Origin: an uncultured delta proteobacterium
GTDB taxonomy: Bacteria > Myxococcota > Myxococcia > SLRQ01
Assembly: GCA_963727485.1 (NCBI GenBank)
Contig: CAVSGM010000002.1
Span: forward strand, 1,600,001-1,664,000
DNA length: 64,000 nt
Direction: 5' to 3'
In this document: piece by piece, positions 27,035 through 47,199 of the stretch
Layout: each line of letters begins with the position of its first letter
How positions within the stretch are numbered: the stretch's first letter is position 1
Position numbers and translations under genes: made by a program
The notes under the pieces: generated by a model
What the model saw: only the letters and a program-made list of their open reading frames with translations
Database searches by the model: none
What the model was told of the DNA's origin: nothing

Positions 27035-27048
27035 GAAGAGGCGTTCCC

Positions 27049-27705
27049 ATGAGAGCCATCGCCCTGCCCCTCGCCGCCGTCGCGTGCGTTGCCGTCACCG
27101 TGAACCTGGCCCGCGCCCAGGCCGCCAAGCCCCCACCCCAGGAGACGGTGCGCCACTTCCTCTCCCTGGCGCACGGTCTCTACCGACTCGCACCCGAGGA
27201 CCGGAAGACGCTCGCGGCGATGAAGGCGGACCCGGCGCCCTACGTCGCCGCGGTGCGCCACGAGATGCCCACCGTGCAGGCCGCCGTCGCCTCCGACCGC
27301 CAGCTGTCCCGGTTGGCGTTCGGGGGCGCCATCCTCGGGGCACTCGGGACGAGCGAGGCGACCGATCTCCTCGCCCAGTGGTACATCTCGGCCGATCGGA
27401 TCACAGCCAAGGCGAAGACCCGGGCCGTACGGCGCCGAGCCATGAGCCTGGCGACCAGCCTGCTCGCCTCCCTCGGTACCACCCGGAAGCCGGCGTTGGT
27501 CACGTATCTGCTGGGGCGGCTGGAGAAGATGAATGCGGCCCCTCGCGGGAGCGCACTGGAGTACCTCCTGCGCTCCAGCGCCGACGACCCGGCGGTGCGG
27601 GCGAAGCTTCGCAGCCTCTCCGAGAAGAAGGGCGCGCCCCTCCACGGGGACCCGACCACCAATGCCGTTCTCAAGGAGATGCTCCGGAGGCACCCGGAGA
27701 AATGA
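27049..27705 (+). CDS. Secreted basic helical hypothetical protein
   Basis: Signal peptide ending ARA|Q; alternative ATG 27031 overlaps the upstream stop; ATGA overlap with the next gene. Confidence 0.7.
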   Translation: MRAIALPLAAVACVAVTVNLARAQAAKPPPQETVRHFLSLAHGLYRLAPEDRKTLAAMKADPAPYVAAVRHEMPTVQAAVASDRQLSRLAFGGAILGALGTSEATDLLAQWYISADRITAKAKTRAVRRRAMSLATSLLASLGTTRKPALVTYLLGRLEKMNAAPRGSALEYLLRSSADDPAVRAKLRSLSEKKGAPLHGDPTTNAVLKEMLRRHPEK

Positions 27706-30700
27706 GCCACGCCCGCCTACCCTGCGCCGCGGCGCTGGCGCTCCTCCTGACGGCGGTGGCCTCCCCGGCGCGCGCCCAGACCGTGGAGTACGGCACCGGC
27801 ATCGTGGTCTCCGGCGGCTTCCACGTGCCCGCGGGCCTGGCCATCGACGGCGCCGATGACCGGGTGCTGGTGGCGGACACCGGCCACCACCGGATCGCCT
27901 ACACTCCCATCTCCTCCCTCGCGGCCTCCCCGACCTGGTCGACCTTCGGCTACGTCGCCTCCCGCAGCGCGCCCGAAGCCCTCAACGAGCCCCAGGGCGT
28001 GGCGGCCGATGGCGCCGGCAACGTCTACGTGGTCGACACCTTCGACAACGAGGTCCAGCACTACGCCTGGGACCCGGCGTCGAGCACCTACGTCTATGAC
28101 CTCGCCTTCGCCGGCACCACCCGCCACAGCGTGGGCGGCGTCGCCATCGCGCTGCCCCGGGACATCGCCGTCGGGCCCGGCGGCAAGGTCTATCTCCTCG
28201 ACTCGGGGAACAAGCGGATCCTGGTGGCCGACGGCCCCGCCGACGACAGCTGGTCGGTGGCCGCCAGCGATCCCGGCTGGGGCAACCCCTACGGCCTGGC
28301 CGTGGCGCCGGACGGGACGCTCTACGTCGCAGACACCGACCACGCGCGGATCGTGAAGATCCCTCCGTCGGGCCCCAGCGTCAGCTTCGGCGGCTACGGT
28401 ACCGGCGACGGGCTCTTTCGTGGCCCCCGGGACGTGGCCGTGGCCCCGGACGGCAAGCTCTTCGTCGCCGACACCGAGAACCACCGGGTGGTGGTGCTCC
28501 GGCCCGACGGCACCCAGTACGCGGTGCTGGGGGTGGCGCCGCTCTTCGGGGATCCGCAGAAGGTGGCCGTGGACGCGGCGGGGCACGTTTTCGTCATCGA
28601 CTCCGAGTACGATCGCCTCGTCGCCTTCCTCGGCCCCGCCGCCACCCAGCCCTTCAATCTCTACCTGCGCGACTACGTCGGGGACGACGGGACCCAGCCC
28701 TCGCCAGACACCTTCGTCCTCTCGTCCCCCGACATCCTGGTGCGCCACGCGCCGGACGTGGACCTGGCGACCGCGGGGTCGAGCGGCCTGGAGGCCTACG
28801 CCTTCCAGCAGCCCCGCTACGGCGAGAACAGCTACGTGTACCTGGCGGTGCACAATCGCGGCGCCCACGTGGGGACCGGCACCGTGGCTCGGATCTACTG
28901 GGCGGATCCCGGTGGGGCGCTCCACTTCCCCGGAGACTTCCACGCGGACGGGCTCTACCAGAGCTACGTGGACAGCTCGATCAACACGTCCGGCAACACC
29001 CTGGCTGTCTCCTCGGTCGACGCCCGCTCGGGAAGCCCGGCGGCCGATGGGGTCACGGTCGTCGGCCCCATCGTCTGGCGGCCGCCGGCCCCCGAGTCGA
29101 CCTCGGCCGGCGACGGGAAGCTCGATTCTCGAGGTGAGACTGCTCAACCCTGCCGACCCCACGGCCCCCGCCACCGGGCTCGACGAGGTCCACGCCAGCA
29201 ACAACGTGGCCCTGCGCCGGGTGACGGTCGAGCGCGGCCCGTTCCCCATCGGCGACCAGGACACCCTGGTGGTACGCGTCGACTTTCCCGACGTCTCCGG
29301 AGACGCCGACCGGACCACGGTGGAGACGCGTATCACCGAGGCCGGCGCCTGGCTCACCGAGGTGAGCTACGGCCTGGCGCATCTCAAGCCCCTCTACCGG
29401 GGGCCCGTCATGCTCTCCCACCCCGAGAGCTACTACTCGACCGGTGACCAGACGGTGCTGATCGACATGACCACCGAGGTGCTCGAAACCCTGCTGGCTT
29501 CGGAGCCGGGGGTCCTCGACGGGCCCACGGCCGACCCCGCGGACGACATCGATCGGGTGGTCCTGGTGGTCAACGACCCGGCCTTCAGCAAGGACTTCGC
29601 CACCACCGGCCACTGGCCGTTCTCGCTCACCGGAGGCGTTCGCTACCTCTCGGTGTCGGTGCAGGGGCCAAACAACCCGACGCCCCAGTTCGCCCACGGC
29701 CTCTCGCACCAGCTCGGCCTCGAGGATCTCTACATCCACCCCAACGTCTCGTTCCCCAAGCCGCACGTGGTCGACGGTTGGGACAACATGGCGAAGCCGG
29801 AGAACGGGGTGCACCCACTCACCTGGTCCAAGGAGCTGGCGTCCTGGGTGACCTCGAGCGGGGCCCGAATCGTCTACATCCCGCGGCCGGATCCCGCGCA
29901 CCCGCGCGCTGGCCAGCCCGCGATCCAGCTCGCCTATCAGACCATCGCCACCAGCGGCCAGAACGCGGCGATCGCCATTGGGCTCACCGAGGGGGTGACC
30001 ACCTTCGAGGAGGAGACCCAGTTCTACTGGATCGAAGCGCGTAGCCCGTCGTTGGGGAACGCCGACGCCGTGGTACCCCAGGACGGCGTCATCATGTACT
30101 ACGCGAACAAGCGGATCCCCCAGGGGCAGGCGCCGGTCATCCTGAGGGACCACGTGCCCGGAACGCCCACCCTCGATGACGCCGCGATCCCCGTCGGTGG
30201 CTCGGAGAGCCCGGCAGGCACCGGCATCACCGCCACCGTGACCGGCAAGCTCCCGGCGAACGGCGGCTACCGGGTGACCGTCGACTACGCGCCCCCCGTG
30301 ACCGACTACGACGTCTACCTCCGGCAGGGGGCGCACCCGTGGCAGAGCCCCGACGTGTGGATCGACCATCAGCCCTACGCGGGCACGCCGACCCCGGGCA
30401 GCGAAGAGCCTACCGGGGGAGAGGAGAACCGGCTCTACGCCCGGGTACACAACGACGGGCCGGCGACCGCCTACCATGTCGAGGTGCGCTTCCTCCTGTC
30501 GGCGCCCTACCACACGGTCGGCGGCGCTGGGTCCTTCGACCTCTACAAGATCGTGTACATCGACGAGATCCCGCCAGGGGCCTATCGCGATGCCTACGTG
30601 GTGTGGACGCCGGCAGGCTCGGGCGATCCCCACAACTGCGCCAAGGTGGACCTGCCGAACCTGATCAACGACACCAACCCCGCCAACGACTCGGCGCAGC

Positions 30701-32025
30701 AGAACTTCACCGTCCAGTACTCGAACCACTCGAGCCCCTACGACCTCGTCGACTTCCACTTCCAGGTGCGCAACGCCACCAAGCGGCCGTCGCTCGTCTA
30801 CTTCCGGGCCGATGGCCTCCCCCGGGGTTGGGCGCACCAGGTGATCCCGGCCAAGAAGCTGCTCCAGCCCAACGAGACGGCGGTGGGGGAGCTGCGGATG
30901 CACCCACCGATCACGGCGCCGTCATGCACGGACCACGAGGTGGAGCTCACGGCCTGGACGCCGCGGGGAGACACGCTGGTCCGCCTCGGGGGCACCACGG
31001 TGGACGCGGCGCTTCGGGACCGGACGCTCCTGAGCCTGGGGACGCTCTTCGGGTCGTGCGGTGGCCTCGCCGGGGGCGGGAAGCAGCCCCCGCCCACCCG
31101 GGGGCCGACCGCGGGTCTGGCGGTGGCACCGGGTGATCCCGCGGACGGGCACGTCTTCGGCTGGGGCCAGGCGCAGACCACGCTGCCGCCGCCCGGCTAC
31201 ACTCGCCTGAGTCCCGAGGTCGTCGACGCGGCCGAGATCGAGCACCGGCGCAACGAGGCGGCGCTGCTTCCCACGGTGAGGGAGCGGCCGCGGCCCTGTG
31301 GGCTCATCGGAGCGGTCGGCTGCACCTCTCCACCACGTCCCCACCAGACGGTGCTGGTGCGCTATCGGGACCCCTCGGGCAACCCGGTGTACCACCAGGT
31401 GGAGACCGACAGCCTCGGCTGCTACCAGGACGCCTACATCGTCGTCGAGGGCGGGGCGTGGAAGGCGACCGCGTCCTTTCCAGGGGACCGCTGTGCCGGG
31501 CCGGTGCGCGGCACGGTGGGCCTGACCGTCCCCCTCGCGGTGACCGGCGACCAGGACCACGACGGGCTCCCCGACAAGGACGAGGTCCAGGGCGACGCCG
31601 ACGGTGACGGGGTCCCCAACGTCCTCGACCCGGACAGCGACAACGACGGGGTGCCCGATGGGGCGGAGGCGCCGGGCGACGCCGACCACGACGGAGTCTC
31701 CAACGTGGTGGACCCGGACAGCGACAACGACGGCGTCCCGGACGGATCCGATCCGAGCCCCTATCACTACTGTCAGCTCTCTCGGCCGGCACGGGCGCGC
31801 GCGCTCGCCGCCTGCCTGGCGCTGGTGCTCCTGGCGGGGCTCATGCTCGTGGCCTCGCTCTTCGGCAAGCGCTGGTGGCTCGCCCTGCTCGCGGCGGTGC
31901 TGCTGCTCGTCGCCCACCTCCTGGCCCAGGGGCGTTGCGTCGACGCCTTCGTGCGACCGGCGTTCTTCCTCATGCTCGTCGCCCTGGCGGTCGCCATCGT
32001 GCTCTGGCGACGCGCTCACCCCTGA
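27702..32025 (+). CDS. Secreted, membrane-anchored NHL-propeller / M6-like protease-domain / TSP3-repeat protein; frameshift near 29123
   Basis: Signal peptide, NHL repeats (P..LA..D..VADT..HR), two SPD[IV]..HN.G Ig-like modules, AHGLSHQLGLEDLY, DxDxDG repeats, C-terminal hydrophobic helices. Confidence 0.75.
31549..31752 (+). repeat. Thrombospondin type-3-like Ca-binding repeats (intragenic)
   Basis: DQDHDGLPD / DADGDGVPNVLDPDSDNDGVPDG / DADHDGVSNVVDPDSDNDGVPDG. Confidence 0.8.
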
Positions 32026-32783
32026 CCGGAGGCGAGGGTCCCCGGGTCGAGCCACTCCATCTCAGGAACGTGCGCCGTGCCGGCGTCCGCGCCGGGGCGG
32101 CGCCACGCCACCGCGAGCCGGTGCCGCGTGGTCGGGCTCGCCAGCTCGAAGCGCCACCCCGCGGGCACGTCCCCGGCGGCCTCGGTCATGGTGATCCCGA
32201 TGGGCCCGGACCCGGTGACGTCGAAGGCGAAGCTGCGCAGGGGGATCGCCAGCCCCAGGCCCCGCGCCTTGATGTAGCTCTCCTTGAGGCACCAGTAGTC
32301 GAAGAACCGCGCGCGCTGTGCCTCGGACGGAAGCGACCGCAGCTCGGCGACCTCGGCCGGTGCGAAGAACCGGCCGGCGATCTCGGTGGTCCGGCCCCGG
32401 CGCCAGGTGTCCTCGACGTCGAGTCCCACCTCCAGGCCGGTGGCCACCACGCAGGCGATGAGCCCGAAGGTGTGGGCGAGGTTGAAGCGCAGGTCGAGGT
32501 CGGTGAGGCCCGGGGCGAGCTCGGGGCGGCCCTTCTCGCCGAGGACGAAGCGCCACTCGGCGGGCCCAGGCACTTCGGACGCACCCGGCTCGGCGGCCGC
32601 TGCCGCCCGGGAGAGCAGGGTCCGGATCAGCGCTCGGCCGAGGAGGTACTCGTGCCGCCGGCGCGGGTGGCGCATCCGGTCGAGGCGCGCCGCCTCGTCG
32701 GGCGAGAGCAGGGGACGGAAGCGCTCGGCGTCGGCGACGTCGGCGGGGTCCAGCAGGGTGACTTGGAGGCGGGGTGGGCCCAC
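32016..32783 (-). CDS. Sfp-type 4'-phosphopantetheinyl transferase
   Basis: LLSPDE, KGRP, FNLAHT, VGLDVE, WCLKESYIKARGLGL. Confidence 0.93.
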   Translation of the reverse strand: MGPPRLQVTLLDPADVADAERFRPLLSPDEAARLDRMRHPRRRHEYLLGRALIRTLLSRAAAAAEPGASEVPGPAEWRFVLGEKGRPELAPGLTDLDLRFNLAHTFGLIACVVATGLEVGLDVEDTWRRGRTTEIAGRFFAPAEVAELRSLPSEAQRARFFDYWCLKESYIKARGLGLAIPLRSFAFDVTGSGPIGITMTEAAGDVPAGWRFELASPTTRHRLAVAWRRPGADAGTAHVPEMEWLDPGTLASGQG

Positions 32784-32833
32784 GGCCGAGAGTCTAGCGC
32801 GTGACCGGGGCGGGTTCCCGGTATGCTGGGGGG

Positions 32834-33982
32834 ATGAACCCCACTCACCTACCGTCCCGTCCGCTGGCCCTCCTCGGGGCCGCAGGTCTGCTCGCCCTCG
32901 GCGCGTGCACCGCCACTCCCAAGGCGACGCCGCCACCGAGCGGATCGGTGACCGCCGGCACCATCGCCGCGGGCGCGGTCACCGAGGCCAAGCTCGCCGA
33001 CGGGGCCGTGAGCACCGCCAAGCTCGCCGACGGCGCGGTCACCGAGGCCAAGCTCGCCGACGGCGCCGTGAGCACCGCCAAGCTCGCCGACGGCGCGGTC
33101 ACCGCCGCCAAGCTCGCCCCGGACGCGGCGGTCACCCATCTGGACGGCCTCACCGGCGACGTGTCCCTCGCCGGCAGCGGCGGGATCTCGGTCACCGACG
33201 GCAGCGGCCAGATCACCGTGGGCCTCACCCGCCCCCTCGACGCCGACAGCGTCGGGGGCGTGGCGCCTGCGAGCCTCGCCCGGCGCGACCCCCACGTGCT
33301 CACCGTCGCCACCACCGCCGGCGCCGCCCAGTTCACCTCGATCCAGGCGGCCCTCGACAGCATCACCGACAACGCCACCACGAGCTACCTCGTCCGGGTG
33401 GGCCCGGGCGTCTACGGCGAGCGGGTCACCATGAAGCAGAACGTGGACATCGTGGGGGCCGGCGAGGACGTCACCCTGATCACCGCCGGGGGCGCGAGCG
33501 CGGCGAGCGACGCCACGGTCACCGGCGCCCCGGACGCCGAGCTCCGGGACCTCACGGTGGAGAACACGGGCGGCGGCGGCAACCACGCCACCGCCTTCGC
33601 CGTGACCTCGACCGCCTCCCGCCTCCGCCACGTGCGGCTGCTCTCGGAGAACGCGCTGTTCAACGGCTACGGCATCTACGCCTCGGGCAACGGCGCGACC
33701 GTGGACGCCCGGGACGTCGACGTGACCATCTCCGCCGCGGGCAGCCGGGCCTACGGGCTCTACGCGGACGCCGGCGGCCGGATCACCTGCCGGGCCTGCC
33801 GCATCCACGCCCCCAGCGGCAGCGGCGCCACCTCCAACGACGCGGTCTTCGACGGCGGCGGCGGCACGCTCATGCTCGCCGGCTCCCTCGTCGACGGGCC
33901 CGCGTCGGGGACCTCGAGCTCGGTGGTCTGCGTCGGCAGCTACAACACGAGCTTCGCGGCGGTGGGCAGCAGCTGCAACTGA
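32834..33982 (+). CDS. Lipoprotein with fibre-like decapeptide repeats and a pectin-lyase-like beta-helix domain
   Basis: LGAC lipobox; (GAVxxAKLAD)n; FTSIQAALD..VRVGPGVYGERV..IVGAG cap typical of right-handed beta-helices. Confidence 0.75.
   Translation: MNPTHLPSRPLALLGAAGLLALGACTATPKATPPPSGSVTAGTIAAGAVTEAKLADGAVSTAKLADGAVTEAKLADGAVSTAKLADGAVTAAKLAPDAAVTHLDGLTGDVSLAGSGGISVTDGSGQITVGLTRPLDADSVGGVAPASLARRDPHVLTVATTAGAAQFTSIQAALDSITDNATTSYLVRVGPGVYGERVTMKQNVDIVGAGEDVTLITAGGASAASDATVTGAPDAELRDLTVENTGGGGNHATAFAVTSTASRLRHVRLLSENALFNGYGIYASGNGATVDARDVDVTISAAGSRAYGLYADAGGRITCRACRIHAPSGSGATSNDAVFDGGGGTLMLAGSLVDGPASGTSSSVVCVGSYNTSFAAVGSSCN
32972..33121 (+). repeat. Intragenic 30-bp tandem repeat, five copies (60-bp higher-order unit)
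   Basis: Alternating GAVTEAKLAD / GAVSTAKLAD units. Confidence 0.92.
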
Positions 33983-34045
33983 CCGGCGTCGCCTCGGGCG
34001 GCGCCTGGCGCGGCGGGCGGCGCCAGTTCCCCGGCGCCCGCCCCG

Positions 34046-37000
34046 CTACCCGGGCATCTCCTCGCGCACCTCGGCGAGGAGGCGCGCCGTCTTCTCTGCC
34101 GTCTCCACCAGCTGCTGCTCCGAGTGGGTCGAGGCCAGGAAGAAGCGCAGCCTGGCTGCGTGGTCCGCCACCGCCGGGTACATGATCGGCTGGACGTTCA
34201 CCCCCGCGGCGAGGAGGCGCTGGGAGAGCATCAGGGCGTGCATGGAGTTGCCGGTGATCGCCGGGACCACCCCGCTCTCGCCCCTGGCCGGCCCGGTGTC
34301 CACGCCCCGCTCGACGAGCGCCTGGTGGAACACCCGGGCGTTGTGCTGCAGCTTCGCCACCCGCTCGGGCTCGGCGAGCATGTACTTGAGCGCCGAGAGG
34401 GCGGCCTGGCCGTTGGCCGGGGTGATGCCCGCGGAGAAGATGAACCCCGGCGCCGAGTAGCGCAGGTACTGGATGAGCTGCTTGGAGCCCGCGAGCCACC
34501 CGCCGCAGGAGGCCAGGCTCTTGGACAGGGTGCCCATCCAGATGTCCACCTCGTCGCCGTTCAGCCCGAAGTGCTCGCGCACGCCCTGGCCGGTCTTCCC
34601 CACCACCCCGAAGGAGTGGGCCTCGTCGACCATCAGCAGGCAGCCCCACTTCTCCTTGAGGCGCACGTACTCCGGGAGCGCGCAGATGTCGCCGTCCATG
34701 GAGTACACGCCCTCGACCACGATCAGCACCTTCTGGTGGTGGCGCCGCAGGGCCTGGAGCTGGTGCTCGAGGTGGGCCGGGTCGTCGTGGCGGAAGCCGT
34801 GGCGCGCCGAGCCGGCGAGCTTCACCCCCTGGAGGATCGAGTCGTGGATCAGCTCGTCGTGGAGCACCAGGTCGTCGGGCCCGAACAGGTGCCCGATGGC
34901 GTTGACGTTGGTGGCGTGGCCGGCGGTGAACACCAGCGCGTCCCCGGCGCCCTGGGCCTTGGCCAGCCCCGCCTCCAGCTCGCCGTGGAAGGGCCGCTCG
35001 CCGCTGGCCAGGCGCGAGGCCGACACCGAGGTGCCGTAGCGCTCCAGGGCGCCGGTGACCTCCGCGAGGATCCGCGGGTCGCCGGAGAGGCCGAGGTAGT
35101 TGTAGCTGGAGAAGTTCACCAGCTCCCGGCCCTCGACCACCGAGGTGTCCCGGGCGGTCCCCTGGTGGACCGCGAAGTAGGGGTTCTCCACGCCGGCGGC
35201 CTTGGCCATCCCCAGGCGCAGCTCCAGGTCCTTGACGCCCTTCCACTGGCCGGGGTCGATCCACTCCTTCTTCACCTCGAAGGGCCCGTCGTCGACCTCG
35301 CCGGCCTCGACCTCCCGGAGCTGGGCGACCACGTCCTCGGCGACGGCCAGCAGCGTGCCCTCGGCGTCGCGGATCCACAGGGTGCCGGTGAACCGGTCGC
35401 CCTCGGCGGGGCCGAAGGTGACCTCGGCCAGAAGCTCGCCCGCGGGGAAGGCGGCGAGCTGGCGGTAGCGGCCGATGGCCACCGGGGTCCCGGCGCGCTT
35501 CCACCTCGTCCAGGCCACGTAGGCCGACAGCTGCATCGCCGAGTCGATGACCAGGGGGTCCACCGTCCACCGGTCGCGCGGGCTCCCGGGGATCCAGGCG
35601 CCGGGGGTGCTGGTGCGGACCCGGCCCCGGACGAAGTCGTCACCGACCCCGTCGATGGCCACGATGCCCTGGAGCCTCGGCCCGTGGAAGGTGACCCCAC
35701 CGTAGAACCGCGAGAGGGGCAGGGTGGGCGCGGCGCCGCCCTCCCGCGGCCCCGGATCCTCGGGGACGTCGGTGAGCGGCCGCACCTGGGCGCGGTAGGC
35801 GAGGCTCCGGTTGCGACCGAGCTTGAGCTCGGCGGTCTCGCCGTGGACCTCGGTCACCAGGCGCACCGGGCTGTTCACCGTCACGCCCTGGAAGAGGCGC
35901 AGGTCGTCGACCTCGAAGCGCTCCGTGGTGGCCGCCACCTCGGCGAGACGGTCGAGGGCCGCGGCCAGCGGCAGCACCGGGGTCCCCTCGATGGCGTGGT
36001 CCAGCAGGTAGGGGTGGGTCTCGGTGGAGAGGGTCTCCTCGAGCTGCAGGCCCCGGAGGATCGCCGGGACCCGCCGGGCATGGAGGCGCACCCCGGTGGC
36101 CGAGAGGTCGCCGAGGAGGGCCTCCATCGCCACGTCGGCCGTGGCGAAGGGCGCGCCCTCCGCGCGCATCGCCTGCTGCACCGCGCCGGGGATGGTGTCG
36201 ACCATGGCGGTGCCGGTGACCGGACCGAGCTCGGCGACCGCGGCGGCGATGGCCTCGGGGAAGGCGCCGACCACCGCCGACATCCCGGCGCTCCCGGCGG
36301 CGTAGTGGAACTGCTGGCGGTTGCCGAGGCGGCCGGCCACCGAGCCCAGGGCCAGCACCCGCCGCACCGTGGGGCCGGCGGCGGCGACGGCGTTGAGCAG
36401 GCCCGAGATCTTCACCTGGCGGGCGAGGCGGCCCCGCTCGGGGTCCACCTCGGCCACCTTGCCGTCGGCGAGGACGCCGGCGGCGTGGACCACCGTGGTC
36501 ACCGCCCGGTGGGTCTCGGGGAGCGTGGCCAGGGCCGCGGCGAGGGCGTCGCGACAGGTGACGTCGGCGGCGAGGGCGACCAGGCGCCCGTCGCTGCCGG
36601 CGATGGCCTCGGCGAGCCCGCCCTCCGGGGCCCCTCGGCCGAGCACCACCACCCGGGCGCCGGCCCCCTCGAGGCGCCGGGCGAGGGCGGCACCCAGGCC
36701 CCGGGTGCCCCCGGTGACCAGGACCACCTCGTCGTCGCCCGGGGCGAAGGCCGCGGCGTCGTCGGCCGTGCCCGCGGCATCGGCCGCGCCCAGGGCGGTC
36801 TCGAGGCCCATCACCTCGCGGCCGGCCGACGAGAGGCGCACGTCGGTGGAGACGTCGGCGCTGCGCCACTCGGCGAGCAGCGCCTCGACGCGGACCTCGG
36901 CGGCGGTCCCGGCGGGGAAGCGGACCGCCTTGGCCACGGCCACGTTCGGTTCGTGGGTGAGCGACCGGGCGGCGCCGGCGAGGGCCTCGGCCCAGGGGTC

Positions 37001-40000
37001 GCCGTCGGTGAGGGCCACCACCAGCTCGTAGGGGGCGTCGCCGAGGTCGCGGAGCGCCGGCACCAGGGCCTCGAGATCGTCGGGGGCCGCCTGCTCCCCG
37101 GCGAGGACCGCGCCCACGGTCGGGCGGGGGCCGGCGGCGGCGCAGAAGACCACCAGGTCCGCGGGCCTGTCCCCGGCGGGGCGGCCCCCCTCGGCCTCGA
37201 GGCGGGAGGCGACCGCGGCCACCAGCTCGGCGTCGGGGCCCAGGACCTGGTAGCGCGGCCGGCTCTTCACCGGCCGGGTGTCCCCGGAGAGCGGCAGGGC
37301 CCGCCACACCGGGCGGAACGCCGAGAGCGGCGCGTCGTCGTCGTCGGTGGCGGCGCCCTCGCCCGCGTGGTCCCGGACGTAGTCCACCAGGACCTGCACC
37401 GTGGGCTGGTCGACGAAGAGCTCCTGGGGGATCCCCGGGAGGCCGGGGACCGCGTCGGCGAGGGCCTCGACCAGGTCGTTGACCATCAGGGAGTCGAAGC
37501 CGAGATTGTCGACCAGGCGCATCTCCGGACGGATGGCGCTTGGGGGGTAGGCCGAGGCCTTGGCCACCGCGGCGATGACGATGCCGGTCGGGTCGTCGTC
37601 ACCGGCCTCGGTCGTCGCCTCGGACCCACCGCCGGTCGCCTCGGAAACGCCGGCGGTCGCCGGCGCGCCCGTGGCGGCCCCGGGGGACGCCGCTGCGTCC
37701 GCGGCTCCCGGGTCCACCCGCCGCCCCGCCCCGGCCCCGCCGAGGTCGAGGGCCGGCTGGGGCGTGTCCTTGATCGCCCAGTACACCTCCCGGGGCAGCA
37801 CCGTGGGCGGCAAGAGCGCCGCCCGCGCCGCCTCGGCGGTGACCGGGTCGAGGTCGAGGTCGACCCCGAGGACGAAGAGCTGGCCGAGGCCCTCGAGGAG
37901 GCTGCGGCCCCCGTCGCCGTCGTCGGTGCCTGCCAGCGGCACGATGGGCGTCCCCTTGGGCAGGGCGCCCCGGGCGAAGGCGGCCAGGGGCCCCCCGGCG
38001 CCCACCTGGACGAAGACCTCGGCGCCGGCCTCGCGGCAGGCCTCGAGGGCGCGGGTGAAGACCACCGGCGAGGTGGCGTGGCGCAGGAACACCGAGCGCG
38101 CGGCGTCGGCGGAGGCGTAGGGCGCAGGGTCGATCCCCGAGGCCACCGTCCGCTTCGGATCGTGGAAGCTCACCCCGGCGAGGAGCGCCTCGGCGTCGAG
38201 GGCCGCGAGGACCGGGGAGTGGAAGGCGTGGCTCACCTCGAGGCTCACCGCCTTCACGCCGGCGGCCTCGGCCCGGGCGATCACCTGGTCCACCGCCTCG
38301 GTGGTCCCGCTGACCACCACCTGCCGCGGGTGGTCGAAGTTGGCGATGACCGCCCCCGGGACCAGGAGCTCCCGGGCGGCGTCGGCGCCGGTCATCACCG
38401 CGCACATCGCCCCGTGGTCCCCGGGCAGCTCGGCCATGGCCCGGCCTCGCCGGGCGACGAAGCGCGCGGCGTCGGCGGGGCTCACCACCCCGCCCGCGGC
38501 GGCGGCGGTGAACTCGCCCAGGGAGTGGCCGGTGACCACCGCCGGCTCCACGCCCACCTCCTCGAGGAGGCGGGTGAGGGCGAGGCCCACCGAGAGCAGC
38601 GCCGGCTGGGCGTGCTCGGTGGCGGTGAGCTCCCGGCGGGCGGTGTCGGCGTCGACGGCCTGGGCCCGGCGCTCGGGGTAGAGGAGGTGGGTGAGGGGGA
38701 AGGCGAGCTCGCCGTCGAGGAGGCGCTCCATCTCCTCGAGGCTCCGGGCCACCACCGGGAACCGGTCGCGGATCCCGGCGACCATCCCCGGGCGCTGGCT
38801 GCCCTGCCCCGGGTAGAGGAAGGCGAGCTTCGGCGCGGTCTCGGGGGCGAGGCCGAGGCGGACCCCGGTGGGCAGCTCGCCCGCGCCGACCTCGGCCAGC
38901 CGGGTGACGAGGCCCTCGACGGTGGCGGCGACCACCGCCAGGCGCGCGGGCTGGCGGCGGCGCCGGTTGAGGGCGCGGGCCACCGCGGCGACGGACGCCG
39001 GGGGGCTCTGGCGCAGGGCCCGGGCCATCCGGGCGGCCAGGTCGCGGAGGGCCGCCTCGTCGGGGGCGGAGAGGAGCACCAGCTCGGGGGCGGGCCCGGC
39101 GGCGGGCGCCTCGGCCTCGGGGGCGGCGTCGGGGACCGGCGTCACCGGCGGCGCCTCGACCTCACCTCGCCCACCTCGGCGAGCCCAGCCGCCTCGCGCT
39201 CGCCCCGGGCCCGGGCCAGCACCTTGCGGGCCGCGCCGGTGACCGTGGCCACCGGGTTCTCGGTCATCGCCCGGGCGGTCTTCCGGGCCACCGCCCGCAG
39301 CTCGTCGAGGTCCCGGACGGGCATCTCGGGGGTGAGCCGCTGCCACAGGCGCGGTGCGCGGACGTCGTCGAGGCCGTGGCCGTGGGTCCCGTGGCCGTTG
39401 ACCGCGTGGCCGTTGGTCCCGGCCACCGTCCGCAGGCTCGGCCGCCGCCCCGGTCCCCTCGAGAGGACGAGGTGGGCGTTGGTGCCCCCGAAGCCAAACG
39501 AGCTCACCGCCGCCACCCGCTCGTCGGTCTCCCAGGCCTCGGCGACGGTGGGGAAGCGGAACGGCGTCTCGTCGAGGGCGAGGTCGTCCCGGGGCTTCTC
39601 GAAGCCGGCCATCGGCGGCAGGCGCCCCTGGTGGACCGCGAGCGCGGCGCGGATGAGGCCGGCGACCCCCGCGGCGGACATGGTGTGGCCGACGTTGGCC
39701 TTGGAGGAGCCGAGGACCACGTCGTTCACCGCCGGCCCGATGGAGCGCATCAGCCCCCGGATCTCGGTGGGGTCGCCCACGGAGGTGCCGGTGCCGTGGG
39801 TCTCCAGGTAGCCGAGCTTCCCCGGGTCGATCCCGGCGTCGCGCCAGGCGTCCTCGATGGCCCCGGCCTGGCCGGCCTCCAGCGGCGCCATGGGCCCGTC
39901 GCCCCGGCCGTCGTTGTTGGTGCCCACGCCCTCGATCACCGCGTAGATCCGGTCGCCGTCGCGGACGGCGTCGTCGTAGCGCTTGAGGAGCACGATGCCC

Positions 40001-40800
40001 GCGCCGTCGCCCTCGACGAAGCCGTCGGCCCGGTGGTCGAAGGGCCGGCAGTGCCCGGAGTGGCTCATGGCGCCGATGCGCGAGAACACGATGTGGTGCT
40101 CGGGGGTCAGCGAGAGGTAGACCCCGCCGGCGAGCGCCGCGTCGATGTTCCCGGCGCGCAGGTGCTGCACCGCCTCGTCCACCGCCACCAGGGCCGAGGC
40201 GCAGGCGGCGTCGACGGTGAACGCGGGCCCGTGGAGGTCGAGCTCCTGGGCCACCGCCGAGGCGACCATGTTCCCCAAGACGCCCGGCGCCGACAGCGGC
40301 CTGGGCGGCACCACCCGCTCCACCGCCCGGGCGATCACCGAGGGATCCGCCGGGGCCTCGCCGAAGGCCCCGGTGGCCATCATCGCCGCGATCACCCGGC
40401 TGGTGAGCAGGGACCGGTACTCGAGGCCGGTGACCCCCATGAACACCCCGGTGCGCCGCGGCGCCTTTGCGGCGGTGAGCCCCGCGTCCTCGAGGGCCTC
40501 GAGGGCCATCTCCAGGGCGAAGCGCTGCTGGGGGTCCATGACCTCCACCCGCCGCGGGGGGATCGAGAGGGCCAGGGCCGGGAACGAGCGGACGTCGGCG
40601 ATGAAGCCGCCGGCGGGGGCGTAGCTCTTGTCGGGGATCCGGGGGTTGGCGTCGAGGAAGGCCTCGGCGCGCCACCGGTCCTTCGGCACCGGTCCGAAGC
40701 CATCGCGGGCGGAGAGGGTCATCTCCCAGTAGGACGGAAGGTCCCGGGCGCCGGCGAAGCGGGCGCCCATCCCCACGATGGCGATGGCTCGGTTGGACAT
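34046..40800 (-). CDS. Type I PKS KS-AT-ACP-KR-DH fused to a PLP alpha-oxoamine synthase (SPT/BioF-like) domain; frame break near 39142-39165
   Basis: KS DAACAS/HGTGT/GHT; AT GHSLG/HAFH; ACP GFDSL; KR TGGTRGLG/YAA; DH HAIEGTPVLP/DSAMQ; AOS SYNYLGL, YSMDGD, DEAHS, GTLSKSL. Confidence 0.9.
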
Positions 40801-40807
40801 GGCGGGC

Positions 40808-42578
40808 TCAGCTCCGGGCGGCGGTCTTGGCGCGGGTCCACAGGGAGCGCGCCATGTGCTTGGCGAGGGTTACCCGGCTGCCCGCCGCGCCGGGGTTCCG
40901 GGAGCCCTCGGAGCCGAGGGAGCCGGTGAGGTACTGCTGCCGGGTCTTGCGCCGCTGCAGCTTTCCCGAGCTGGTCTTGGGCAGCGCCCCCGGCGAAAGA
41001 CAGACGACGTCGGCCACCACCACCGACAACGCCTCGTGGACCTTGCGCTTGACCGCCTCCACCAGGGCGTCGGTGTCCGTCTCCCGGGTCTCGAGGACCA
41101 CCACCAGCTCCTCGCTCTGCTCCCCGGGGCGGGAGCAGGCCACGACGTTGCCCTTGCGCACGCCGTCGACCTCGCCGACCTCCCACTCGATGCTCTGGGG
41201 GTGGAGGTTCTTGCCGTTGAGGATGATGAGGTCCTTGATCCGGCCGGTGACGTAGACCTCGCCGTCCTTCAGGTAGCCGAGGTCGCCGGTGTGGAGCCAC
41301 CCGTCCCGGAAGCTCTGGCGCGTGGCCTCCTCGTTCTCGAAGTAGCCCGGCGTCACCGACGGCCCCTTGAGGCACAGCTCGCCCTCGCGGCCCTCGGGGA
41401 GACGGTTGCCCTGCTCGTCGAAGACGGCGACCTCATGGCCCGGGAAGGTCGTCCCGCAGCTCACGTGCTCCAGCACGAAGGTGTCCTCGCCCTCGGGCTC
41501 GACCACCTCGCCCCGGTCCTGGAAGGCGTCGGCGTCGACCAGGCGGGTGCGCAGCTCCTGGTCGATGGGCTTGAGGCTGATGGCCAGCGTCGCCTCGGCC
41601 ATGCCATAGGCGGAGAGCACCGCGTTCTTGGGGAGCCCGCAGTGCTCGTGGAAGGTGCGGGTGAAGGTGCGGATGGTCTCGGGGTGGATGGGCTCGGCGC
41701 CGCAGCCGAGGATCTCGATGCAGGACAGGTCCCAGTCGGCGAGCTGCTTGTCGGTCGCCTTCCGGGCGGCGAGGGCGTAGGCGAAGTTCGGGGCGAAGGA
41801 GATCGTCCCCCGGACCTCGTGCATGGTCTGGAGCCAGCTGTTCGGCCGCTTGAGGAAGCGCAGGGTGGGGATGAAGGTGGTGTCCAGGCCGAAGAAGGTC
41901 GGGGCGATGACGAAGCCGATGAGCCCCATGTCGTGGTAGAGGGGCAGCCAGCCCACCGCCCGGGTGATCCTTGGCGTCGAGCTTCAGGCCGTCGTGGACG
42001 ATCCCGTAGGTGTTCGCGTAGAGCGAGGCGTGGGTGACCATCACGCCCTTGGGATCCGAGGTGGACCCGCTGGTGTACTGGAGGAAGACGAGGTCCTCGG
42101 GGCTGATCGCGGGGATCTTCGGCACGCCGCCTTCGCCGGCGAGGCGCTCGGCGACCACCAGCTTCTCCATCGACGGCACCCGGTCGACCAGGTTCCACAG
42201 GAGGTTCTGGACCCGCTCGGAGGCGACCAGGATCTTCGCCCCGGCGCTGGCGAGGATGCGGGCGGTGCGGCCGGCGTAGGCGTCGAGGCTCCCCAGGGAG
42301 AGCGGCGGGTAGAGGGGCACCGGGACGATGCCCACCCGCACCGCGGCGAGGAAGGTGAGCACGAAGTCCTCGGGCTCGACGATGATCAGGCCGACCCGGT
42401 CGCCCTTGCCGAGGCCCAGGTCCTGGAGGGCGGCGGCGCGGTGGTCCACGGCGTCCCGGACCCGGCCGAAGGGGTAGAAGGACGGCTTCCCCTGGAGGTC
42501 CTGGAAGGTGAAGCCGTTGTCCGGCCAGGCGTCGGCGGTGGCGACGATGGCCTCGGAGAGGGTGGGCGGGCGTGCCAT
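40808..42578 (-). CDS. Fatty acyl-AMP ligase (FAAL); frameshift near 41962
   Basis: FLQYTSGSTSDPKGV, WLPLYHDMGLIG, PNFAY, YGMAEATL, TGDLG, GRIKDLII, PKTSSGKLQR. Confidence 0.9.
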
Positions 42579-42657
42579 GGAGGGGTGCTCCTTGGGAGCC
42601 GCCGGGAGCGGTCGAGGGCGGCGCGGGGCGGCGTCGGCGATCCCGGGGTGAAATTGA

Positions 42658-42778
42658 AATTCGTCAGACCAATCGGGCCCTTCGGGGACTCGAGGGTCGC
42701 GCTTTGTACCATACGCACCGAGCGGTCGGGAAGCCTGCGGACACCTGCCGGGAGCGCCCGCGAGAGGTCAGACCACAG
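42658..42778. promoter_or_regulatory. Two FadR-subfamily (GntR)-like operator boxes
   Basis: AATTCGTCAGACCAATC (42658-42674) and a GGTCAGACC palindrome (42766-42774). Confidence 0.6.
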
Positions 42779-42818
42779 GCTCCCCGGAACCGGGGATCCC
42801 CGCGTCCTCCGTGCTCAG

Positions 42819-42846
42819 TTGACTTCGAGAATCTTTCGTCTAGCTT
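42819..42846 (+). promoter_or_regulatory. Sigma70-type promoter, probably near-leaderless
   Basis: TTGACT-N16-TAGCTT, 8 nt before ATG 42855; no SD. Confidence 0.6.
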
Positions 42847-42854
42847 GACCCGCC

Positions 42855-43988
42855 ATGGAGACCGCACTGCTCTTGCACAAGTCGGGGGGATCCACCGGTG
42901 GGTGGATGCAGAGTTGGCGATGGGACAGCGCCCTGCTCATCGGGAGCGCCGCCGTCGTCCCCATCGTGCTGTTCATGGTCTGGGCCGGGGTCCCGAACCT
43001 CACCCTGAACATCACGGTGACCGCCCTCATCGGCGGGCCCCACCTCTTCGCCACCGCGATGCCCACCTACCTGGACCGGGGCTTCCGCCGCAGCCACAAG
43101 GGGCTGCTCATCCTGGCGGCGATCGCGGTGCCGACGCTGGTCATCTGGGGCACCTTCACCAACTTCCAGGTGCTCCTCTCGATCTTCATCTTCGCCGCGT
43201 CGGTGCACGTGCTCCAGCAGAACGCCTACCTCACCGACATCTACCGGGCGCGCAAGGGCCTGCCCGAGGCGAAGTGGGCCCGGTTCGTGGACTACGGCCT
43301 GCTCTCGGTGTGCATCTATCCCATCGCCGCCTACAAGCTGGTCAACTCCGACTTCCGGCTGGGGAACGTGCAGATCCTCATCCCCAAGTTCCTCATGACC
43401 CCCGCCACCTACTGGGCGGTGTGGACGGTCTTCGGCACCTTCCTGCTGGTGTGGCTGGTGAAGACCTTCCTCGAGGTGCGTCGGCGCGAGCTCAACGTCC
43501 CCAAGACCCTGCTCATCAGCGCCACCACCGTCATCGCCTTCTTCATCCCCACGGCCGCGTCGGGGGCGCGCCTGGAGCTCGCCTTCCAGGCGGTGAACAC
43601 CTGGCACTCGGTGCAGTACCTGGGGATGATCTGGTACATCCAGAAGGTCCGCAAGGAGATGGGCCTCATCGAGTCGCCCTTCGTCCGCAAGCTCTCGGGG
43701 AGCGGCCGGCCCACCTGGTACTTCTGGGGCTTCTGCATCGCCCTGACCGGGATCATGTTCGGGGTGCTGATGGGCCTGTACTGGACCAACCCCTTCCACA
43801 TGCCCTTCATGCAGTACTACTACATGGGCATGCTCTCGGTGCTGCTGATCCACTACGTCCTCGACGGCTACGTGTTCCTGGTGGCCAACCGCGAGGGCAC
43901 CGACGTGCGCACCATGCCCTACGCGGCGCCGGCGTTCCGGCCGGCCCAAGCCCCGGCGGGCGCTCCGGTGCCGGCGGTGGCGGGCTGA
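42855..43988 (+). CDS. Polytopic membrane protein with four His motifs, function unknown
   Basis: About 9-10 hydrophobic segments; GGPHLFAT, HVLQQ, WHSVQY, HYVLDG; strong codon bias. Confidence 0.75.
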   Translation: METALLLHKSGGSTGGWMQSWRWDSALLIGSAAVVPIVLFMVWAGVPNLTLNITVTALIGGPHLFATAMPTYLDRGFRRSHKGLLILAAIAVPTLVIWGTFTNFQVLLSIFIFAASVHVLQQNAYLTDIYRARKGLPEAKWARFVDYGLLSVCIYPIAAYKLVNSDFRLGNVQILIPKFLMTPATYWAVWTVFGTFLLVWLVKTFLEVRRRELNVPKTLLISATTVIAFFIPTAASGARLELAFQAVNTWHSVQYLGMIWYIQKVRKEMGLIESPFVRKLSGSGRPTWYFWGFCIALTGIMFGVLMGLYWTNPFHMPFMQYYYMGMLSVLLIHYVLDGYVFLVANREGTDVRTMPYAAPAFRPAQAPAGAPVPAVAG

Positions 43989-44252
43989 TCCCGTCGCCGG
44001 CCGTGGTGGGCTGATCCCGTCGCCCGCGTCGACGCGGCGGCCATGACCCCAAGCGATCACGGGCCGCCGCCCTCGTGATCCGCGCCGCGCCGGGGCCTCC
44101 CCCGGCACCCCTCTGAACGCGTCACGTTGGGATACGTTGGGGCGGATTGCCCCAATGGGATACGTTGTACTGCGCTCGACGGGTCGGCCACCCCCCGCCG
44201 CCCGGGCACGCCCCGCGCATCGAGGGGCGAGGCGCTGTCCCCAACGCGCGCC

Positions 44253-45611
44253 TCAGCGCCGCGACCCGGTCGGGGGCGCGGGCGGCACCGCGGGCGCGGG
44301 CGGCGCCGCGGGGGCGGGCGGCGCGGGCAGGGCCTGGCGCAGCCCCTCGAGGAGGGCGGCCACCGCCCGGGGGCCGAAGTAGGCCTGCCGGCTCTCCCCG
44401 GTCCGGGCGGCGAGGGCCCCCGGGGTCTCGAGGTAGCCGAGGTAGCCCAGGGCCAGGCCCACCACCCGCACCGGGCCCCCGGCGCGTCGGGCGAGCCGCC
44501 GGGTCCAGCGGGCGGCGAGGGGCGAGACCGGCTCCCCGGGGACCATCGCCAGGGTCAGGTCCCCGACGCCGAGGGTCGCGACCTGGGCGCTGCGGGGGGC
44601 GAAGGGGACCAGGAGGTTGCCGGCGAGGTGCCGGAGGCCCAGGGGCGCCACCGTGTCCCCGGTGGGCGCCGGGAGGTCCACGGTGGCGCCGCCGAGGCGC
44701 ACCGCCCGGGGGGCGGCGGGGGTGAGGGGCAGGGCCCGGACCGCCGCCGCGACCGTCTCCCCCAGGGCGACCATCCGGGCGTCCTTGGAGCCCGCCCCGG
44801 GGATGGGCGCGCTGGTGACGTCGCCCACCGCCCCCTGGAGGAAGACGGTGGTGCCGTCGAGGTGCCGGGCGAGGACCCCGGGCCACCCGGCGGAGAGGCG
44901 GTGGTCGTGGGCCCCGAGGACGGTGGCGTGGCAGGCGAAGACCACCACCCGGCCCAGGGGCGGGCCCCCGGCGGCGGGGTCGACCTCGACCACGGTGAGG
45001 CGCCGGTCGGGGCGGCGGCCCGGGTCCCGGCTCCGGCAGATCGCGGGCCCGGGGCCGGTGCCCAGGCGCAGGCGCGCCGGCACCGCCTGCGCCGCCGCCC
45101 GGGTGAGCGCCGCCACCGTGTCCTTGACCACCCGGCGGGTGTAGCGGGCGTCGGAGCGGCCCAGGCCGATGAGCTCGGCGAGGGGATCGTCCCAGAGGCC
45201 GCCGGGGCCGTTGTGGGTGTGGGTGGCGGCGACCACCACCCGGTCGATCCCGGCGCCCTTCGCCCCGGCGGCGATGGCGGCGGCGAGCGGGGGCGGGACG
45301 AGGACCACGTCGAGGCTCACCAGGCCCACCCGGTGCCCGCCGCCGGCGAGGACCAGGACCCGGGCGTTCACCGGGTCCCGGACGGCGGTGAAGTGGGCGC
45401 CGTGGCGGCTCCCGAAGCCCCCCAGGGGCAGGGGGCGGGTCGGGGTGAGGTCGGCCTCGGCGAAGCCGGCGGCCAGCGGCGCCGGGAGGACCACCGGGGC
45501 CAGCGGGTGCACCGCCACCGTCCGGCGCGGGCGCAGGTCGAAGGACCCCACGGCCCACACGCCGAGGATCACCCCGAGGGCCAGAAGGCCCAGGCGCCGC
45601 GCCCGCTTCAT
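44253..45611 (-). CDS. Neutral/alkaline ceramidase-family amidohydrolase with N-terminal anchor or signal
   Basis: AGFAEADLTP..LGGFG..DPVNARVLVL..VSLD..ATHTHNGP..FACHAT..SAGWPG..FLQGAVGD..PGEP. Confidence 0.8.
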   Translation of the reverse strand: MKRARRLGLLALGVILGVWAVGSFDLRPRRTVAVHPLAPVVLPAPLAAGFAEADLTPTRPLPLGGFGSRHGAHFTAVRDPVNARVLVLAGGGHRVGLVSLDVVLVPPPLAAAIAAGAKGAGIDRVVVAATHTHNGPGGLWDDPLAELIGLGRSDARYTRRVVKDTVAALTRAAAQAVPARLRLGTGPGPAICRSRDPGRRPDRRLTVVEVDPAAGGPPLGRVVVFACHATVLGAHDHRLSAGWPGVLARHLDGTTVFLQGAVGDVTSAPIPGAGSKDARMVALGETVAAAVRALPLTPAAPRAVRLGGATVDLPAPTGDTVAPLGLRHLAGNLLVPFAPRSAQVATLGVGDLTLAMVPGEPVSPLAARWTRRLARRAGGPVRVVGLALGYLGYLETPGALAARTGESRQAYFGPRAVAALLEGLRQALPAPPAPAAPPAPAVPPAPPTGSRR

Positions 45612-45776: not shown

Positions 45777-47199
45777 ATGTTCGACAAGCTCAAGGAGTAC
45801 TGCGGGGTCTTCGGGATCTACGGGCATCCCGAGGCCGCCAACCTCGCCTACCTCGGCCTCCACGCCCAGCAGCACCGGGGCCAGGAGTCGGCGGGCATCG
45901 TCTCGGCGAAGGACGGCCACCTCTACTCCCACCGGGCCATGGGCCTGGTCGCCGACATCTTCGGCGAGGAGGTCCTGGAGAAGCTCCCGGGGACGGCGGC
46001 CATCGGGCACGTGCGCTACTCCACCGCCGGCGACTCCCACGTGAAGAACGCCCAGCCGTTCACCGTGGAGTACGCCGACGGGCCCATGGCGGTGGCCCAC
46101 AACGGCAACCTCATCAACGCCCTCGAGCTCCGGGAGCGCCTGGAGCAGGCCGGGTCGATCTTCCAGTCCAACATGGACACCGAGGTGCTCATCCACCTCC
46201 TCGCCCGCAACCGCCACGGCACCTTCCTCGACCGGCTGGTCGAGACCCTCGCCGAGGTCCGCGGCGCCTGGTCCCTGGTGTTCCTCACGCCCAATGCGCT
46301 CATCGGCGCCCGGGACCCCCTGGGGTTCCGGCCCCTGGTCCTCGGCCGGCAGAAGGGCGCCTACGTCCTGGCCTCGGAGACCTGCGCCCTCGACCTCATC
46401 GAGGCCGAGTTCATCCGGGAGATCGAGCCTGGGGAGATCGTGGTCATCGACGGCGAGGGGCTCACCTCCCTGCGCCCCGAGTCCCTGAAGGCCGATCGCA
46501 CCGGCCACTGCATCTTCGAGCTGGTCTACTTCGCCCGCCCCGACTCCATGGTCTTCGGGCGCAGCGTCTGGGAGGCGCGCAAGGCCATGGGCCGGCGCCT
46601 GGCGAAGGAGCACCCGGTCGAGGCGGACCTGGTGATCCCCGTCCCCGACTCGGGGGTCCCGGCGGCGCTCGGGCTACGCCGAGGAGAGCGGCGTCCCCTT
46701 CGACCTGGGGCTGGTGCGCAGCCACTACGTGGGCCGCACCTTCATCGAGCCCAGCCAGTCCATCCGCCACTTCGGGGTCAAGCTCAAGCTCTCGCCGGTG
46801 CGCGCGGCGCTGAAGGACAAGCGGGTGGTGGTGGTCGACGACTCCATCGTCCGGGGCACCACCAGCCGCAAGATCGTCGCCCTGCTCCGGGGCGCCGGGG
46901 CCCGGGAGGTCCACCTGCGGATCTCCAGCCCCCCCACCACCGACCCCTGCTACTTCGGCATCGACACCCCCACCAAGCAGGAGCTCATCGCCGCCAGCCA
47001 CTCGGTGGAGGAGATCGCCCGGTACATCACCGCCGACACCCTGGGCTACCTCTCGGTGGAGGGCCTCCACGCCTCGGTGAAGGACCCCGGCGAGACCTTC
47101 TGCGACAGCTGCTTCACCAGCCGCTACCTCCTGAACCTCCCCGACGACGAGTCCCGGGCCCGGATGCGCCACCCGGGGGTGAGCTTCGCCAGCCGCTGA
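45777..47199 (+). CDS. purF: Amidophosphoribosyltransferase; extra G at 46671-46673
   Basis: [48 protein letters not shown]. Confidence 0.96.

Follow-up and report, generated by a model that had tools for sequence, protein, structure and literature searches.

The stretch of DNA considered here, referred to below as the window, comprises 64,000 nucleotides from an uncultured bacterium of the Myxococcota (lineage SLRQ01; contig CAVSGM010000002.1, positions 1,600,001 to 1,664,000), and it carries a polyketide synthase (PKS) that ends in a pyridoxal phosphate (PLP)-dependent alpha-oxoamine synthase (AOS), the fusion with which this report is concerned. The window has a GC content of 73.8%, and its source genome (G000, with contigs C1-C3) amounts to 5.55 Mb in 14 contigs and is 93% complete; other G numbers denote further genomes and L numbers denote loci. 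A gene for a fatty acyl-AMP ligase (FAAL), 62% identical to the intact orthologue in G003, lies 7 bp upstream of the PKS on the same, minus strand; their common orientation had been stated in an earlier note on this DNA, which had proposed that these genes belong to a pathway for sphingoid bases.

The PKS is organized as ketosynthase (KS), acyltransferase (AT), acyl carrier protein (ACP), ketoreductase (KR), dehydratase (DH) and AOS (Table 1). Pfam assignments and catalytic motifs agree with the earlier note on this order, on an AT with the motif HAFH (malonyl-type by the usual specificity rule) and on a complete AOS, and scans of the window PKS with Pfam and NCBIfam returned no match to the enoyl reductase (ER) or thioesterase (TE) families. 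The KS retains its cysteine (40212) and two histidine motifs (39804 and 39702) and is 68% identical to the KS of G003, and a confident structure model of the DH shows two strand-helix-strand halves. In an alignment of 33 orthologues every sequence retains the KR tyrosine, the DH histidine, the DH aspartate and the AOS lysine, with no sign of the inactive DH for which the earlier note had allowed. Neither an ER family nor a second ACP motif of the GFDSLM type was found among the 120 homologues listed, and the labels of these proteins, where they have any, are only 'aminotransferase' or '8-amino-7-oxononanoate synthase' (BioF). Among 8,000 proteins scored, 1,666 (1,173-3,735 aa) match the KR-DH-AOS part at E 1e-100, some of them possibly through the AOS alone. 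The named fusion loci and the top homologues are metagenome-assembled genomes or metagenome contigs, and searches of the KS and of the KR-DH part against the PDB named no close characterised relative. One member of the family (L137:6960-12494, in G045) is a fusion without an AT domain, adjoined by FAAL, ACP, reductase and ceramide synthase genes.

Table 1. Features of the PKS-AOS locus and of its surroundings (positions are those of the window).
Feature	Position	Strand	Basis and remarks
PKS, in the order KS, AT, ACP, KR, DH, AOS	34046-40800	-	Pfam
PKS ketosynthase (KS)	39442-40800, within ORF 39142-40800	-	PF00109/PF02801
Acyltransferase (AT)	37976-38830	-	PF00698; motifs GHSLGE and HAFH
Single in-cis ACP	37376-37579	-	PF00550, GFDSLM
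Ketoreductase (KR)	36161-36727	-	PF08659; GGTRGLG motif and catalytic Tyr
Dehydratase (DH), PKS type	35336-36055	-	PF21089 in the window, PF14765 in orthologues; His and Asp
C-terminal PLP-dependent AOS, SgaB/RkpG/WcbT clade	34046-35260	-	His/Asp/His/Lys motifs
FAAL, AasR-like	40808-42578	-	NF006624 top family for both halves
FAAL halves (two ORFs)	41433-42578 and 40808-41956	-	One-base frameshift near 41970
Sfp/HetI-type phosphopantetheinyl transferase (PPTase)	32016-32783	-	PF01648, E 1e-17; NF042922 below cut-off
NAD-dependent epimerase-family reductase, CerR candidate	16733-17710	+	16 kb from the PKS
Histidine-rich multi-pass membrane protein	42855-43988	+	Divergent from FAAL; possibly accessory
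Ceramidase-family-like gene	44253-45611	-	PF04734 over residues 84-186 only, E 2e-11
Lipoprotein-like gene with repeats	32801-33982	+	PF01095, E 7e-10; between PKS and PPTase

Codon-position GC indicates that the reading frame shifts once within the PKS, close to 39160, and once within the FAAL, close to 41970; the earlier note mentions neither break. On the sequence evidence both are assembly errors, because the orthologues are intact (for the PKS, single ORFs of 2,134-2,492 aa), the neighbouring purF (45777-47199) is likewise split by one base near 46670, and public contigs restore the frame. The extra base of the FAAL is missing from near-identical contigs of the public runs X1 and X3 and that of purF from contigs of X2 and X3, while the PKS frame is restored in a single X4 contig at a depth of 2.6; X1, X2 and X4 are salt-marsh runs from three studies. 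The intact orthologues and the equally broken purF rule out a programmed frameshift or a pseudogene. The window probably contains more splits of this kind, one candidate being that between 27702-29447 and 29134-32025.

The AOS domain is 49% identical to an AOS encoded on a Pseudomonas plasmid (L112), in a locus with the published sgaA-sgaB-sgaC spacing, 49% to a WcbT-like protein of Caballeronia and 47% to an RkpG-like protein of Sinorhizobium (the last two labels being inferred from context), and identity falls to 41% with the myxobacterial serine palmitoyltransferase (SPT), 38% with that of Bacteroides and 34% with the BioF-like gene of the source genome itself (C1:204636), its sole other AOS. 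The active-site motif blocks are almost identical to those of SgaB-like proteins, and the published PfSgaB sequence agrees with them in a comparison made by eye only, L112 being its stand-in in the alignments. Among solved structures the SPT of Sphingobacterium is the best match both in sequence and in fold (Z 46.2, rmsd 2.4, 388 residues aligned); the fold search used a 684-residue model and its matches came from the AOS part. Family models for SPT, BioF and Kbl do not separate the three, none of them reaching its own cut-off on this domain. In a FastTree phylogeny of 102 sequences, a comparison that the earlier note had proposed, the AOS groups with the SgaB/RkpG/WcbT types and other ACP-tethered AOS proteins, away from canonical SPT and BioF, with support of 0.92-0.97 on the enclosing nodes. 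A BioF role can be ruled out, given a TIGR00858 score of 329.8 against a cut-off of 426.45 bits and separation from the BioF-like gene of the source genome in both identity and tree. PfSgaB is described as an SPT with a near-exclusive preference for serine (PMC12134224), and the AOS of the window is likely, from its sequence, to be a serine-condensing release domain.

The distribution of the fusion was followed in 401 Myxococcota genomes, searched with the window AOS domain, a canonical myxobacterial SPT and a GNAT protein of the source genome (C3:242454-243620). By its sequence this GNAT belongs to the ceramide synthase family (CerS/YghO), being 36% identical over 382 aa to E. coli YghO (E 3e-83), which is the CerS orthologue of a five-gene ceramide cassette as described in PMC9386255; for ceramide-synthase-type GNAT proteins no solved structural relative and no NCBIfam model were found, and in canonical myxobacterial genomes a GNAT of this type follows spt. 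The AOS lies in a long PKS frame in 85 of the 401 genomes, among which the source genome (frameshift) and G002 (contig end) are counted, and in shorter, truncated or other frames in 23. These 23, whose AOS-clade frames are shorter than 1,750 aa or differently built, were set aside before exclusivity was counted; seven of them also have an SPT, namely G292 and G298 and the five that were inspected, which have other architectures (G008, G152, G174, G283 and G289). SPT was matched in 179 genomes, 161 of them strongly once 18 weak matches (E 1e-100 to 1e-120) are excluded, and the GNAT in 280. Ceramide synthase accompanies the strong SPT matches in 160 of 161 genomes and the long fusion in 83 of 85, and only 2 of these 85 also carry a stand-alone SPT. 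Of the 118 genomes with the GNAT and no SPT, 94 carry the window AOS clade. In both dual genomes (G185, L164:2701-3885; G201, L165:7705-8886) the SPT copy lacks the PLP lysine and aspartate and is still found upstream of ceramide synthase genes; these copies may be decaying or may be non-catalytic partners, for which eukaryotic LCB1 is an analogy. Stand-alone SPT gave no match in the source genome at E 1e-100, and it was not found in five more fusion genomes nor in four of another five, with a partial 47% match in G421. The split between fusion and SPT holds among the genera of a single family (f2) as well as over several families, and the fusion is single copy throughout whole families (f6 and f14). 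In a further family (f12, for example G042 and G087), 13 of 17 genomes have ceramide synthase and neither SPT type at the thresholds applied, with best AOS matches of 34-36%, and another divergent SPT may be present there.

The gene neighbourhood of the fusion resembles that of the known ceramide cassette. Queried with the E. coli cassette, the source genome gives the window FAAL (36%) as the best match to FAAL and the AOS domain of the PKS as the best match to SPT; the best match to the cassette reductase lies at 16733-17707, beyond the span given in the earlier note (33%, E 1.5e-39, in a one-way search within a broad family), and this reductase is 53-62% identical to reductases that adjoin the PKS in G003 and G002. 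A cluster-type ACP (C1:858579) is 72% identical to the ACP of G003 and was unmatched by E. coli AcpR at E 1e-3. Synteny across Myxococcota, which the earlier note had suggested comparing, was examined in 36 fusion loci for genes within 8 kb of the PKS, counts that are floors since some contigs are short. Ceramide cassette genes recur in them: FAAL in 31, stand-alone ACP in 27, ceramide synthase in 12 and an epimerase-type reductase in 9, together with a 282-aa mycolic-type methyltransferase in 17, a PPTase and an acyl-ACP desaturase in 8 each and a membrane desaturase in 3; an ER was found in none of the 36. The placement of cerS divergent from FAAL-ACP-PKS resembles the layout of E. coli yghO, aasR, cerR, acpR and spt. 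Among compact examples, the cluster of G003 (L016:6431-17676) has FAAL, methyltransferase, ACP, PKS-AOS, PPTase and reductase, and in G002, a member of the same family, genes for a GT21 glycosyltransferase, a histidine-rich membrane protein and a desaturase face FAAL-methyltransferase-ACP-PKS. The short-chain dehydrogenase/reductase (SDR) of the cluster resembles TSC10/KDSR only at rank 6, which is not decisive.

Membership of the AOS in the SgaB clade, co-occurrence with ceramide synthase, exclusion of SPT and synteny with the ceramide cassette together give good support to the sphingoid-base reading advanced in the earlier note. The favoured explanation, to which as a whole, with the mechanism set out below, we assign a probability of about 0.6, is that the fusion takes the place of SPT in opening the pathway to membrane sphingolipids. 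That it replaces stand-alone SPT and makes a sphingoid base as a housekeeping function is, from the genomic evidence, quite probable, and if it does so serine would be the amino acid condensed with still greater confidence; that exactly one round of extension takes place has perhaps slightly better than an even chance. In the proposed mechanism the FAAL would load a fatty acid onto the stand-alone ACP (encoded on contig C1 in the source genome), the ACP-bound chain might be modified by the short mycolic-type methyltransferase or a desaturase, and the KS would extend it with malonyl-ACP. A KR plus a DH without an ER leaves a 2E-enoyl thioester, and with no cis ER to reduce the double bond the AOS would condense the 2E-enoyl chain with L-serine and release 3-keto-4E-sphingenine. 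Fungal methyl-sphingadienine is an analogue of the methylated or desaturated bases proposed here. The bacterial ceramide synthase would N-acylate the base and a CerR-like or KDSR-like enzyme would reduce the ketone. FAAL-ACP pairs have been described as feeding acyl-ACP to bacterial SPT (PMC9386255, PMC11324152), and N-acylation followed by reduction is the order proposed for Caulobacter (PMC11087976).

For the single-round, O2-independent formation of the 4E double bond that the earlier note envisaged, the genomes speak in both directions. The N-terminal motif of Des1-type desaturases (a 37-position model) is found in 12 of 85 fusion genomes, as against 77 of 161 SPT genomes, and not in the source genome, a deficit that weakly supports desaturase-free formation of the double bond. 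A broader proposal would see in about one quarter of the sampled Myxococcota a third bacterial sphingolipid route, yielding 4E sphingosine without O2 or a Delta-4-desaturase along with fungal-like, methyl-branched and glycosylated ceramides, the ancestral SPT having been lost or decaying; this is tentative, and we would put it somewhat short of even odds.

Several observations weigh against these interpretations. In the window itself the ACP, methyltransferase and ceramide synthase are unlinked to the PKS, the source genome having its set dispersed (desaturase-methyltransferase-ACP and, separately, GT21 on C1, ceramide synthase on C3). Twenty-four genomes carry the GNAT and neither SPT type, and ceramide synthase was found in none of five further fusion genomes at E 1e-30, whose AOS is 63-65% identical to that of the window (an E. 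coli query gives weak fragments of 22-29% in two of the five), nor was it found in G090, G110 and G398. Four loci of those five genomes have a divergent SDR in its stead, which suggests an SgaC/KDSR-like variant. The counts come from related genomes, uncorrected for kinship, and cannot be treated as independent evidence. The inner nodes of the AOS tree are weak and the same AOS clade serves other architectures (Streptomyces KS-AT-ACP-AOS, AOS-SnoaL), so that the amino acid is not settled by membership of the clade; in this tree the myxobacterial fusions are not gathered in a single clade. As to the double bond, the Des1 motif is missing from about half of the SPT genomes as well, and genes for O2-type desaturases lie inside 11 of the 36 loci.

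The number of extension rounds is the point at which an alternative comes closest to the reading just given. The fusion might replace SPT as an iterative, SgaA-like PKS, making a very-long-chain base with the aid of a trans ER or, failing that, a 4,6-diene or polyene base. Synthases of the PfaA and enediyne types behave iteratively, and since the domain order of the fusion is theirs, with the PfaA model among the top KS matches, several rounds are possible. A trans ER is possible too, given that a PKS of the polyunsaturated fatty acid type elsewhere in the source genome (L163:2308-13397, on C2, frameshifted) has an N-terminal NMO-family reductase domain. SgaAB is reported to make C24-C28 sphinganines (PMC12134224). 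A preformed long starter is nevertheless indicated by the frequency of FAAL and stand-alone ACP at the loci, the 36 loci hold no ER, the PfaD family was not found in the 93% complete source genome and tandem ACP motifs are missing from the 120 homologues, and this iterative alternative is on balance unlikely.

Two other alternatives concern the fate of the chain. If the AOS used alanine, glycine or another amino acid, the products would be 1-deoxy-sphingoid bases or other aminolipids, acylated by the GNAT. The domain is only about 49% identical to an SgaB-like protein, the position that is valine in ThAOS is serine both here and in the BioF of the source genome, and 1-deoxysphingolipids are described as abundant in anoxic marine water (PMC11334938). 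The near-identity of the motif blocks to those of SgaB-like proteins, PfSgaB being almost exclusively serine-preferring, argues the other way, as does the GT21 glycosyltransferase whose gene flanks the G002 cluster and of which the source genome has an orthologue: on a ceramide substrate it would require a hydroxyl at C1, although the HpnI model (below its cut-off) suggests that it may be a hopanoid enzyme; use of another amino acid thus seems quite improbable. Longer odds still attach to a capsule lipid anchor of the Rkp/Wcb kind or a RedL-like secreted amino-polyketide, with the link to ceramide a by-product of shared ancestry. It is true that the nearest named relatives of the AOS lie in rkp/wcb capsule loci and that some fusion genomes have no ceramide synthase, but a scan of 15 window proteins and 42 neighbours found no capsule family, ceramide synthase genes are adjacent in 12 of the 36 loci, and single-copy presence through whole families, exclusion of SPT and its decay where both occur also tell against this alternative.

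The remaining genes around the PKS were judged individually. The PPTase that the earlier note placed downstream is present, and comes right after the PKS in G002 and G003; in the window a lipoprotein-like gene on the opposite strand separates the two. This gene, which encodes tandem repeats of 10 residues and a part resembling pectinesterase, was judged to lie outside the system and is found in 1 of 36 loci, and a look-alike occurs at L029:12617-13648, 5 kb from the ceramide synthase gene. The ceramidase-family gene of the earlier note does exist, as a partial match: it scores 30.8 bits against a cut-off of 1200 for neutral ceramidase (NF041649), and PF04734 covers 103 residues of a 509-position model. 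It cannot be retained as a pathway member, as it accompanies the PKS at only one of the 36 loci (that of the window), lies on other contigs in five of five fusion-bearing relatives and adjoins purF both here and in G002. For the histidine-rich membrane protein no Pfam or NCBIfam match was found and the Atlas matches are unnamed; it is present in 2 of 36 loci, its orthologue in the G002 cluster (66%) standing between the GT21 gene and the desaturase, and it is a possible lipid-modifying enzyme. The region 21316-32025 is a block of genes for large proteins, secreted or exposed at the surface, with PKD, NHL and CARDB domains, and has a GC content of 69-71%, compared with 74-79% around it.

If the proposed mechanism is true, it would account for ceramide synthase genes found without an accompanying spt, provide a testable O2-free source of 4E-unsaturated bases in sediments, represent the capture of a primary membrane pathway by a PKS and offer a single enzyme for sphingosine production in engineered bacteria. 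Surveys of bacterial sphingolipid producers, as described in PMC11334938, search for stand-alone Spt, and because of this, and because databases name the fusion as an aminotransferase or BioF, it is easily missed. PKS enzymes with embedded PLP domains are already described (PMC3870968), and SgaAB is a published case of bacterial sphingolipids made by a PKS (PMC12134224); the genus table of that paper has no Myxococc-, Archangium or Sorangium entries and three unclassified Deltaproteobacteria. A literature search that extended neither to subscription papers nor to part of the PMC12134224 supplements found no description of an ER-less PKS of PfaA order, fused to an SgaB-clade AOS, that sits in a ceramide cassette and excludes SPT. 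Other one-protein combinations occur elsewhere. Many Planctomycetota loci within L036-L111 (for example L062:7787-11290 and L066) encode FAAL-ACP-AOS fusions of about 1,150-1,200 aa with the same AOS clade, near a ceramide synthase gene in two loci, and on sequence grounds these are likely another one-protein substitute for SPT. In L084:8654-16348 (Blastopirellula marina) and L051:8690-16393 an SgaA-type PKS, ER included, is fused to AOS as a one-gene sgaAB, and actinomycete proteins of the KS-AT-ACP-AOS type, 1,500-1,700 aa long and devoid of reductive domains (L058, L061, L072, L076, L100, L101, L109, L110, L114), form their own well-supported clade.

The fusion shares something with each of four known systems. 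The PfaA/HglE/enediyne type has the same KS-AT-ACP-KR-DH order; it differs from the fusion, which has one ACP, a C-terminal AOS and no PfaBC, PfaD or TE partner in its loci, and the PfaA model scores 332 and 202 bits on the two PKS halves against a cut-off of 1010. RedL, with the order FAAL-ACP-KS-AT-ACP-AOS and no KR or DH, condenses its chain with glycine on the way to a pyrrole, and a RedL-like protein was seen in L088; fatty-acid priming, extension and AOS release are common to both, whereas the fusion has conserved KR and DH domains and is served by a FAAL encoded separately. PfSgaAB(C) of Pseudomonas fluorescens MYb115, like RkpA/RkpG and WcbR/WcbT, has a PKS-made chain released by an AOS of the clade found here (47-49% to plasmid-borne homologues), with a sphingoid product in the case described (PMC12134224) and an SDR reductase adjoining some related loci. 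The SgaA-type PKS runs KS-AT-DH-(MT)-ER-KR-ACP, MT being a methyltransferase, with a separate AOS and capsule genes, in contrast to the ER-less order, fused AOS, FAAL and ACP priming and ceramide synthase linkage of the fusion. The ceramide cassette aasR-cerR-acpR-spt plus cerS, as described for Caulobacter and E. coli BL21 (PMC9386255, PMC11324152, PMC11087976), has its FAAL, stand-alone ACP, epimerase-type reductase and GNAT represented here as well, and its divergent cerS is often repeated in the fusion loci; what sets these apart is that SPT is missing or dead, that methyltransferase and desaturase genes have been added, and that a PKS-AOS of 2,100-2,500 aa occupies the spt slot.

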